Origin: an uncultured Bacteroidales bacterium
GTDB taxonomy: Bacteria; Bacteroidota; Bacteroidia; Bacteroidales; ML635J-15
Direction: 5' to 3'
Assembly: GCA_905234755.1 (NCBI GenBank)
Contig: CAJOIT010000003.1
Location: 479,331-543,330 of the forward strand
Length of the DNA: 64,000 bases
The notes under the pieces were generated by a model, which was given only the letters and a program-made list of their open reading frames with translations, made no database searches and was not told where the DNA came from. Below, piece after piece: positions 53,192 through 53,395 of this stretch. The position numbers and the translations under genes were made by a program. Within the stretch, counting starts at the first letter, position 1, and each line of letters starts with the position of its first letter.

Positions 53192-53395
53192 CGCGTTCAA
53201 GAAAAAAGCCTGAGAAACTGATTTCAAGAAAGTCGGATTAAAAGCAAAGCTCACGGAATGCCTGTACTTGGCTGACCTACAATGTCAAAAGGTTAATGTT
53301 TGCACCAAAAGGTGTGGACAAAATCTATAGACATTGGCGGGTTTCTTCTCAGGCTTCCCGTGAACGCGAGTAGAAAGGTTCACGCCTTTCTTTTT
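53192..53395 (+). ncRNA. candidate structured RNA or cis-regulatory leader ending in an intrinsic terminator
   Basis: Long-range helices 53192-99:53361-68 (8 bp) and 53207-16:53346-55 (10 bp). Inner hairpin 53280-86:53330-36. Terminator hairpin 53372-53391 plus T5. Competing helix 53359-65:53378-84. Class unknown. Confidence 0.35.

Follow-up and report, generated by a model that had tools for sequence, protein, structure and literature searches.

A conserved structured RNA upstream of a mobile Type II restriction-modification operon of Bacteroidales, a candidate two-state leader

We analysed a 64,000-nucleotide (nt) stretch of DNA from an uncultured Bacteroidales bacterium (assembly GCA_905234755.1, contig CAJOIT010000003.1, positions 479,331 to 543,330; hereafter the window, whose own numbering is used throughout) and focused on the 291 nt-long intergenic gap at 53147-53437, which separates the end of a gene for a 74-amino-acid (aa) protein from the ATG of a methyltransferase gene. 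The latter (53438..54496, plus strand) encodes a Type II N6-adenine DNA methyltransferase of the EcoRI family (Pfam PF13651, 2.5e-137; PADLOC MTase_II, 7e-122) and is followed on the same strand (54584..55675) by the gene of a restriction endonuclease that combines DUF262 (GmrSD_N; PF03235, 3.6e-21) with an HNH domain (PF01844, 2.4e-14) and matches the PADLOC profile REase_II over its full length (1.6e-138). PDB sequence searches with both enzymes yielded generic HNH-domain matches only; the fit of the neighbouring methyltransferase and endonuclease to Type II profiles gives them the predicted function of a Type II restriction-modification (R-M) system. R-M systems are mobile and potentially lethal, and the way in which they regulate themselves upon entry into a new cell has been attributed to controller proteins, to autorepression by the methyltransferase and to antisense RNAs. 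The gap upstream of this methyltransferase-restriction enzyme (M-R) pair contains a structured RNA that is probably a bistable, cis-acting 5′ leader of the mobile EcoRI-family methyltransferase/DUF262-HNH operon, ~260 nt long from a conserved 5′ motif to the ATG.

The plus strand of 53185-53400 has a predicted folding energy of -82.4 kcal/mol, compared with -50.7 +/- 4.0 kcal/mol for 200 dinucleotide shuffles (z = -7.86, no shuffle being as good), and the minus strand of the same segment reaches a z of -4.5 only. An earlier inspection of the letters without database searches, here called the sequence-only reading, had postulated a genuine structured RNA of ~200 nt on the plus strand, and both this z-score and the recurrence of the architecture in homologues bear it out. 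All helices named in that reading are present in the minimum-free-energy fold, and the coordinates given for its long-range helices, CGCGTTCA (53192-99) with TGAACGCG (53361-68) and AGCCTGAGAA (53207-16) with TTCTCAGGCT (53346-55), were verified, as was a terminator-like hairpin of AGAAAGG (53372-78) and CCTTTCT (53385-91) followed by a T run to 53395. The inner helix CAATGTC (53280-86) with GACATTG (53330-36) and the apical GCACC-AAAA-GGTGT were likewise found in the sequence.

A scan of species-representative genomes yielded 80 loci, in which the RNA was sought with nhmmer. The search detected it in 67, invariably in the orientation of the methyltransferase gene and reaching to the start of that gene, and two more of the 80 have no DNA upstream. 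The RNA-bearing loci lie in many unrelated chromosomal contexts with the RNA immediately 5′ of the M-R operon, which upholds the link to the methyltransferase/HNH pair that had been suspected from the window. The first homologous contigs had already displayed this arrangement, with the M-R pair in differing neighbourhoods and a long non-coding stretch always 5′ of it; this stretch aligns with the window RNA, and compensatory changes are evident. The M-R pair itself was kept in all 78 loci with DNA downstream of the methyltransferase gene and was missing only from L036 and L045, and the methyltransferase family comprises more than 8000 matches. The whole conserved leader corresponds to 53160..53437 (plus strand), from the point where conservation begins, at ACATATT/AAATATT, to the base before the ATG; the sequence farther 5′ varies with the context, and the hits of nhmmer and of a covariance model end at the ATG in all loci. 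This covariance model, built from 39 sequences, matched the window once (53186-53398, 155 bits), found no extra copy in any locus, recovered divergent type-B members (e.g., L012, L065 and L059) and had no match in the RNA-less loci. The RNA-less M-R loci include ones labelled Flavobacterium, Arcicella, Acidobacteriota, Alphaproteobacteria, Sulfurimonas and Prevotella, and in two of them a helix-turn-helix (HTH) gene lies directly upstream. Since orthologous M-R pairs occur without the RNA, the enzymes do not need it, and the RNA is, judging from these comparisons, a lineage-specific regulatory addition to the operon and not an enzyme cofactor. A BLAST search of the gap against phage and plasmid collections gave no match. 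When the 15-mer GCATTAGCTATTATT was used as a probe, no RNA-bearing locus was found among the matches listed for viral collections, and in metagenome collections at least 10 loci carried the real RNA, nearly all other matches to this short, AT-rich pattern being due to chance. The RNA is a new family, carried by a mobile Type II R-M operon of gut and rumen Bacteroidales.

Covariation was counted in the 39-sequence alignment A4 and compared with 500 column shuffles and with slid partners. For the helices of the predicted fold, called Fold I (P1, P2, P4, P5, P6 and the terminator-like hairpin T), 94.0% of the cells were paired, against 84.5% in the column shuffles and 33-45% with slid partners, 25 of the 45 pairs had compensatory changes, and none of the 500 shuffles matched the observed values. 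The best-supported helices are P1 (53191..53199 with 53361..53369; 99.7% of cells paired, 4/9 pairs compensatory), P2 (53207..53216 with 53346..53355; 96.1% paired, 6/8 compensatory, e.g., GC:21 / CG:18) and P5 (53280..53286 with 53330..53336; 89.4% paired, 7/7 compensatory). P3, the hairpin CTGATTT-CAAGA-AAGTCGG at 53218..53236 of the minimum-free-energy fold, is kept as a hairpin in homologues with differing sequence and register and was left unscored owing to alignment ambiguity. The weakest helix belongs to the variable P4 hairpin region (53244..53274) with its conserved CACGG, in which ACGGAA/UUCCGU is paired in 79% of cells with 4/6 pairs compensatory. P6 is formed by strand A (GTTTGCACC, 53298..53306), which has a near-invariant AUG just 5′ of it, and strand B (98.6% of cells paired), and hairpin T, with its arms AGAAAGG and CCTTTCT, its TTCACG loop and the following U run (53372..53395), is paired in 96.6% of cells with a mean energy of -7.1 kcal/mol. 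The helices first noticed in the window are hence conserved and covary across homologues, and that this is a conserved structured RNA we regard as practically certain.

The sequence-only reading had also placed a switch in this RNA, in which the 3′ strand of P1 would pair with the loop and stem of the terminator hairpin (CGTGAAC, 53359-65, with GTTCACG, 53378-84). This pairing is complete in the window (7/7), but in the 39 homologues only 69.2% of cells are paired vs 70.1% in shuffles; 496 of the 500 shuffles reach the observed value, most sequences have A·C mismatches at two of the seven positions, and the candidate was rejected. What survives of the proposed mutually exclusive helices is that the terminator-like hairpin has a conserved competitor, which is the 3′ strand of P6 and not that of P1. 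This strand B (GGTGTGGAC / GGUGUGGAC, 53311..53319) is the switching strand and has either A or C as its partner, strand C (GTTCACGCC / GUUCACGCC, 53378..53386) consisting of the last G of the 5′ arm of T, the T loop and the CC with which the 3′ arm begins. The B:C helix is paired in 350 of 351 cells (99.7%) with compensatory changes at 5/9 pairs. Although three positions distinguish strands A and C in the window, each pairs with B, which favours pairing over a common motif for protein recognition. UCUA (53324..53327, in the P5/P6 internal loop) lengthens the helix by pairing with UAGA (53371-53374), in 91.7% of cells and with covariation through the compensatory variants UUCA:UGGA and UUCA:UGAA; this extension may act as a toehold. 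A further hairpin, CGGGG:CCCCG, fits within the loop enclosed by B:C. Taken together, the helices of this alternative Fold II (B:C, extension and nested hairpin) are paired in 96.6% of cells, a value reached by 0/500 shuffles and compared with 39-66% for slid partners. Across 39 diverse hits of the covariance model, B:C complementarity amounts to -17.0 kcal/mol vs -7.6 kcal/mol for shuffles and is achieved by many different sequence solutions. The local energies, averaged over the 39 sequences, are balanced (-21.6 kcal/mol for P6 plus T vs -20.6 kcal/mol for the extended strands, B-ext:C-ext), which in these energy models suggests that only P6 and T are exchanged between the states. We consider it likely that strands A, B and C form a functional switch, i.e., a two-state element maintained by selection.

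Several further features were noticed in and around the switching strands. In L018 (2748-3001, a Prevotellaceae metagenome-assembled genome, MAG), strand A and the normal T hairpin are lost, a perfect 14-bp B:C duplex is kept and a short new hairpin, CACUGA/UCAGUG, extends into the beginning of strand B, which may represent a naturally rewired switch. Helix X (CGGGG:CCCCG) and helix ALT (UUCACGG:CCGUGAA) are conserved, with one covarying column each, and are topologically incompatible with P2; they were set aside and are at most possible intermediates. The AUG at the 5′ edge of P6 (53296-53298, A4 columns 122-124) occurs in 65 of 68 homologues, with GUG in two and AAG in one. The open reading frame (ORF) starting from it spans 1 to >38 codons in homologues, with no shared frame or stop, and a ribosome-mediated leader-peptide attenuator was rejected because no conserved ORF starts from this near-invariant AUG beside strand A.

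A second pair of alternative helices connects the 5′ end of the RNA with the start of the methyltransferase gene. The hairpin F:G (53404..53436, plus strand) consists of GTGATTGATAG (53404-53414), a loop with a conserved TGC and CTATCGGTCAC (53426-53436), and ends 1 nt before the ATG. All 9 of its pairs are conserved, with 21 G·U wobble cells (on the plus strand only), one compensatory C-G and 3 mismatch cells, and its energy is -12.9 kcal/mol in the window and -13.5 kcal/mol on average in the family. This variation fits base pairing in plus-strand RNA, so that transcripts must begin upstream of F:G. Strand F and the loop TGC are in turn complementary to strand E, the near-invariant 5′ motif GCATTAGCTATTATTC (53177..53192), which is unpaired in Fold I. 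The E:F duplex has -17.2 kcal/mol in the window and a family mean of -13.8 kcal/mol vs -5.5 kcal/mol in shuffles; by our reading of alignment A2, one class of variant F strands, GGAUAAUGG, pairs at least as well with an unchanged E, and in the divergent locus L062 strands E, F and G are altered together in a compensatory manner.

Both promoters and translation initiation in Bacteroidetes differ from those of model bacteria, and we scanned 67 unique loci for the canonical Bacteroidetes -7 box, TAnnTTTG. We found it in 52 of these loci, 44-95 nt before the 5′ motif, vs 6% in shuffles; in most of the other 15, as in the window, a gene ends a short distance upstream. No locus (0/67) has such a box in the stretch from the 5′ motif to the ATG, and an internal promoter giving a truncated RNA still capable of Fold II was rejected on this ground. 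Because a promoter box lies upstream, a hairpin acting at the RNA level abuts the ATG and the 5′ motif is complementary to that hairpin, the RNA is very probably a cis-acting 5′ leader of the R-M operon. The sequence-only reading had left the choice between a leader and a stand-alone small RNA (sRNA); the former is favoured by the upstream boxes, the hairpin at the ATG and the E:F complementarity, and the latter is disfavoured.

The direction of the switch is suggested by two Kiritimatiellaeota loci, which had escaped detection by our models and have the same architecture (P1, P2, long arm and P6). Their B-ext:C-ext helix, with 18-19 continuous bp (-27.4 and -34.3 kcal/mol), spans the Shine-Dalgarno sequence, and five U separate its end from the ATG; in the modelled fold it is plainly an OFF structure. 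As B:C buries the Shine-Dalgarno sequence there, Fold II may by homology be read as the OFF state in Bacteroidales as well, an analogy on which we are evenly divided. The conserved T and U run resemble an intrinsic terminator with a weak stem, and the alternative B:C helix also adjoins the U run; the label of a transcriptional OFF riboswitch is at most provisional. In the same two Kiritimatiellaeota MAGs (L064 and L068, 2786-3003), one or two copies of GGCACGUUGCGGGUGAGCCGCAG lie upstream of P1; the first part of this element is a further copy of strand B, able in the predicted fold to pair with C, which suggests a fourth competing strand.

In the mechanism we propose, transcription would start from a host or cassette promoter 44-95 nt before the motif or, in the window, come from the upstream gene, and it would have to traverse the leader to reach the two genes. 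In Fold I the RNA would be a long, branched rod of P1, P2, a junction with P3 and P4, and the P5-P6 arm, in which both P6 (A:B) and the purine-rich/U-rich hairpin T are closed. In Fold II, strand B would exchange A for C, UCUA:UAGA would lengthen the helix and T would be lost, leaving a strong helix directly before the U run. A second element appears to be coupled to the first: paired with G, strand F would form the hairpin that occludes the translation-start region, and paired with E it would close the whole domain. The polarity we infer is that Fold I with E:F would be expressing, since the P1 helix would bring E beside F and so open the start-codon hairpin, and that Fold II with F:G would be silent, with transcription ending at the U run, the start occluded, or both. 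The leader would in this way limit or time the synthesis of both enzymes, a role played elsewhere by HTH controller (C) proteins, and to judge from its position it is probably an RNA-based controller that replaces the control protein. Candidate triggers are either of the operon's two proteins, a metabolite such as S-adenosylmethionine (SAM) or S-adenosylhomocysteine (SAH), or a slow strand displacement serving as a timer; in the timer version, new transcripts would be translatable in Fold I, and toehold-mediated strand displacement would then carry them over into Fold II, the silent state. As the RNA is confined to one operon and the Kiritimatiellaeota form has no P3/P4 junction, a general metabolite is less likely than feedback by an operon protein or an intrinsic folding timer. 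Somewhat more doubtfully, this might be the first R-M controller based on RNA structure, a self-contained mobile two-state leader that either senses an enzyme of its operon or acts as an autonomous folding timer.

A number of observations weigh against the bistable leader. Because the sequences are related, the shuffle-based counts inflate significance somewhat. Strand E is invariant in 68 of 68 aligned sequences, so that E:F rests on conserved complementarity and a few variants and not on broad covariation; its invariance and the drift of the F register during extraction made a formal covariation test of E:F impossible. For the window, the nested Fold I has -82.9 kcal/mol vs -52.6 kcal/mol when B:C is enforced, and with this gap of ~30 kcal/mol Fold II as a plain nested alternative was rejected. 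Since B:C crosses P1, P2 and P5, Fold II would require a pseudoknot on the intact rod, partial opening or unfolding of P1, or a factor, and by a rough geometric estimate the UCUA:UAGA extension would hardly be compatible with a completely closed P1. Hairpin T is weak, shrinks to ~4 bp in some type-B members and was not called by a simple consensus terminator scan, presumably because its tail retains no more than 4 T once the stem is extended to 7 pairs. In type A, moreover, a helix precedes the U run in both folds, and transcript start, 3′ ends, termination and read-through are all predictions from sequence. The Kiritimatiellaeota variants, finally, retain the switch but have no P3/P4 junction, and this weakens the case for a conserved small-molecule pocket.

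The last point bears directly on the most specific form of the leader, a strict metabolite riboswitch, in which the multi-stem junction would bind SAM or SAH and the ligand would fix Fold I or Fold II. The RNA does have what characterises riboswitches, a conserved structured domain in the 5′ untranslated region with covariation and an expression platform of mutually exclusive helices (A:B vs B:C and T, with three-way covariation, and F:G vs E:F), and the large domain, the four-way junction, the conserved unpaired AAAC after P2, GGAUAAAAGCAA, UUCACGG and CGGGGUUC, together with the balanced energies of the alternative helices, would suit a ligand-binding RNA. SAM would be an attractive ligand because the downstream PF13651 enzyme uses it, as is established for the EcoRI-family methyltransferases. 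Against this stand the restriction of the RNA to this operon, never to metabolic or transport genes, the Kiritimatiellaeota variants that retain the switch without P3 and P4, and the lack of a SAM/SAH riboswitch or any other Rfam match: the 4227 covariance models of Rfam 15, which include SAM, SAH and thiamine pyrophosphate (TPP) riboswitches, 6S, HEARO and Bacteroides/Bacteroidales motifs, matched nowhere in the window at the gathering threshold and nowhere in 53100-53480 at E<=10. In eight homologous loci, Rfam at E<=1 returned just two irrelevant sub-threshold matches, both outside the element, in line with the earlier failure to assign the RNA to a known class by eye. The literature searched, which included a survey of 224 motifs, yielded no RNA leader or riboswitch on R-M operons, although such absence is not proof of novelty. 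We consider the strict metabolite riboswitch, a special case of the bistable leader, unlikely. A stand-alone, trans-acting sRNA that ends at the U run near 53395, with the methyltransferase transcribed separately, would account for the compact, highly stable fold and the terminator-like 3′ hairpin with its U run, an appearance shared by many bacterial sRNAs. It would, however, need a start for the methyltransferase transcript within the only ~45 nt between the RNA and the ATG, which are occupied by an RNA-level hairpin and lack a canonical promoter box in all 67 loci; the 5′ flank pairs with a hairpin 3′ of the U run, which is sensible only within one transcript, the RNA was never found apart from the operon, and the Kiritimatiellaeota versions continue straight into the Shine-Dalgarno sequence and ATG. 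A separate sRNA is on these grounds quite improbable, and a terminated by-product of the leader with a function of its own is possible.

Two further explanations would move the RNA away from the control of its own message. As an RNA partner of the HNH nuclease, it would guide or scaffold the enzyme in the manner of the IscB omega-RNA, or be an inhibitory, antitoxin-like RNA produced in excess by means of the terminator, like ToxI. The operon order of RNA, terminator and nuclease resembles both systems, and the HNH domain has sub-threshold similarity to IscB and Cas9d models (23 and 32 bits vs cut-offs of 175 and 375). Enzymes of 58-65% identity nevertheless occur in RNA-less operons of other phyla, the nuclease matches a Type II endonuclease profile over its full length and lacks a RuvC domain, neither HEARO nor another omega-RNA matched, the 5′ region is invariant, unlike a variable guide, tandem repeats of the ToxI type are missing, and the cis pairings E:F and F:G indicate control of the mRNA, all of which makes a partner of the nuclease very improbable. 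The repeated 9-mers could also be read at the DNA level, as operators or recombination sites whose RNA structure is incidental, because CTATYAWTC occurs in direct orientation as E and G and in inverted orientation as F, and A and C likewise resemble each other in direct orientation, with B as their inverted counterpart. This is hardly credible given the bias towards G·U pairs on the plus strand (21 wobble vs 3 mismatch cells in F:G and many U·G/G·U in A:B and B:C), which would be A·C mismatches on the opposite strand. A and C, moreover, differ at three positions in the window and both pair with B, the long-range helices P1, P2 and P5 covary without sequence conservation, and no DNA-binding regulator is encoded in the cassette according to Pfam. 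The bistable leader is the reading we retain.

The surroundings of the operon are those of a small defence island adjoining tdk, a reading that follows from the methyltransferase and endonuclease and from PADLOC matches to the candidate defence system PDC-M13. At 52449-53146 of the window, a DUF3990 gene overlaps the gene of the 74-aa protein (PADLOC 8e-40 and 4e-20, the latter to PDC-M13C); the 74-aa protein has no Pfam match at E<=0.01. The sequence encoding its C-terminus is also found directly 5′ of the RNA in L048, L046 and L083, and PDC-M13 and the R-M system are thus repeatedly neighbours and probably co-transcribed. The 87-nt spacer between the methyltransferase and HNH genes contains two copies of a 16-nt direct repeat, AAATAGGAACAATATG, at 54529-54544 and 54571-54586; the second copy includes the start codon of the HNH gene, so that the translation-start region of the nuclease is duplicated. 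Across loci, this spacer ranges from ~10 to >1000 nt and in many of them holds variable numbers of GC-rich hairpin repeats, e.g., AGTCCCGTAGGGACG and AGCCCCGTAGGGGCG units, which resemble small palindromic repeat elements (L014, 1553-1795; L019, 4059-4257; L020, L039, L084 and L087). The metagenome contig OMBD01002651.1 (L219, 3106 bp) consists of the RNA, the methyltransferase and HNH genes and ~680 nt only; it starts and finishes within the RNA with a 19-nt identical terminal overlap and may be a circular or tandem copy of the cassette or an assembly artefact. Farther upstream in the window, a 913-aa ORF on the minus strand (48955-51696) fuses Mur ligase domains to a complete alanine racemase, with Pfam matches to both.

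A large and conserved bistable leader that accompanies an R-M cassette widespread in gut and rumen Bacteroidales would, if confirmed, constitute a new regulatory principle for R-M systems, in which a controller RNA sets the amount and timing of methyltransferase and nuclease in a newly invaded cell. With the RNA in 67 of the 80 sampled species and the size of the methyltransferase family (>8000 members), a well-populated new family would be added to the RNA databases. It offers a natural example of a three-strand conformational switch, of which a variant in another phylum turns the same switch to sequestration of the Shine-Dalgarno sequence, and the leader could serve as a compact regulatory part for Bacteroidetes.

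Among known systems, the HEARO/omega-RNA of IscB is likewise a structured RNA of ~200 nt directly upstream of an HNH nuclease operon, but the leader has no Rfam match to HEARO and no variable guide, is dispensable in orthologous systems and does not belong to this class. IscB itself combines RuvC, HNH and PLMP domains, whereas the nuclease in the window has DUF262 and HNH without RuvC and a full-length Type II endonuclease profile. Type III toxin-antitoxin systems such as ToxIN share with the operon the order of RNA, terminator-like hairpin and gene for a toxic nuclease, and as there the terminator could set the ratio of RNA to mRNA. The leader differs in that its RNA pairs in cis with the start region of the mRNA, protection is already provided by the methyltransferase and tandem repeats are absent: comparison of the gap with itself by BLAST revealed the inverted repeats of the helices only, without the tandem units of a type III antitoxin RNA. 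In function, the leader resembles three-structure attenuators (anti-antiterminator / antiterminator / terminator), such as the PyrR-controlled pyr leaders and the expression platforms of riboswitches, in which one strand also picks between two partners, one pairing removes the hairpin before a U run, the element sits at the 5′ end of an operon and the states are energetically balanced. Unlike in these, the switching strand of the leader belongs to an apical hairpin ~60 nt upstream, the alternative helix crosses P1, P2 and P5, and a start-codon hairpin and a helix closing the 5′ and 3′ ends are added. In its position, the leader matches the regulators of Type II R-M systems, as it lies directly upstream of the R-M genes and moves with the cassette, just as HTH C proteins do, and an HTH gene takes its place in two RNA-less orthologous loci. 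It departs from the C proteins, from methyltransferase autorepression and from the EcoRI antisense RNAs in being a structured cis-acting RNA; presumably it shares with all of them the purpose of restricting or timing the expression of two enzymes that together could be lethal.

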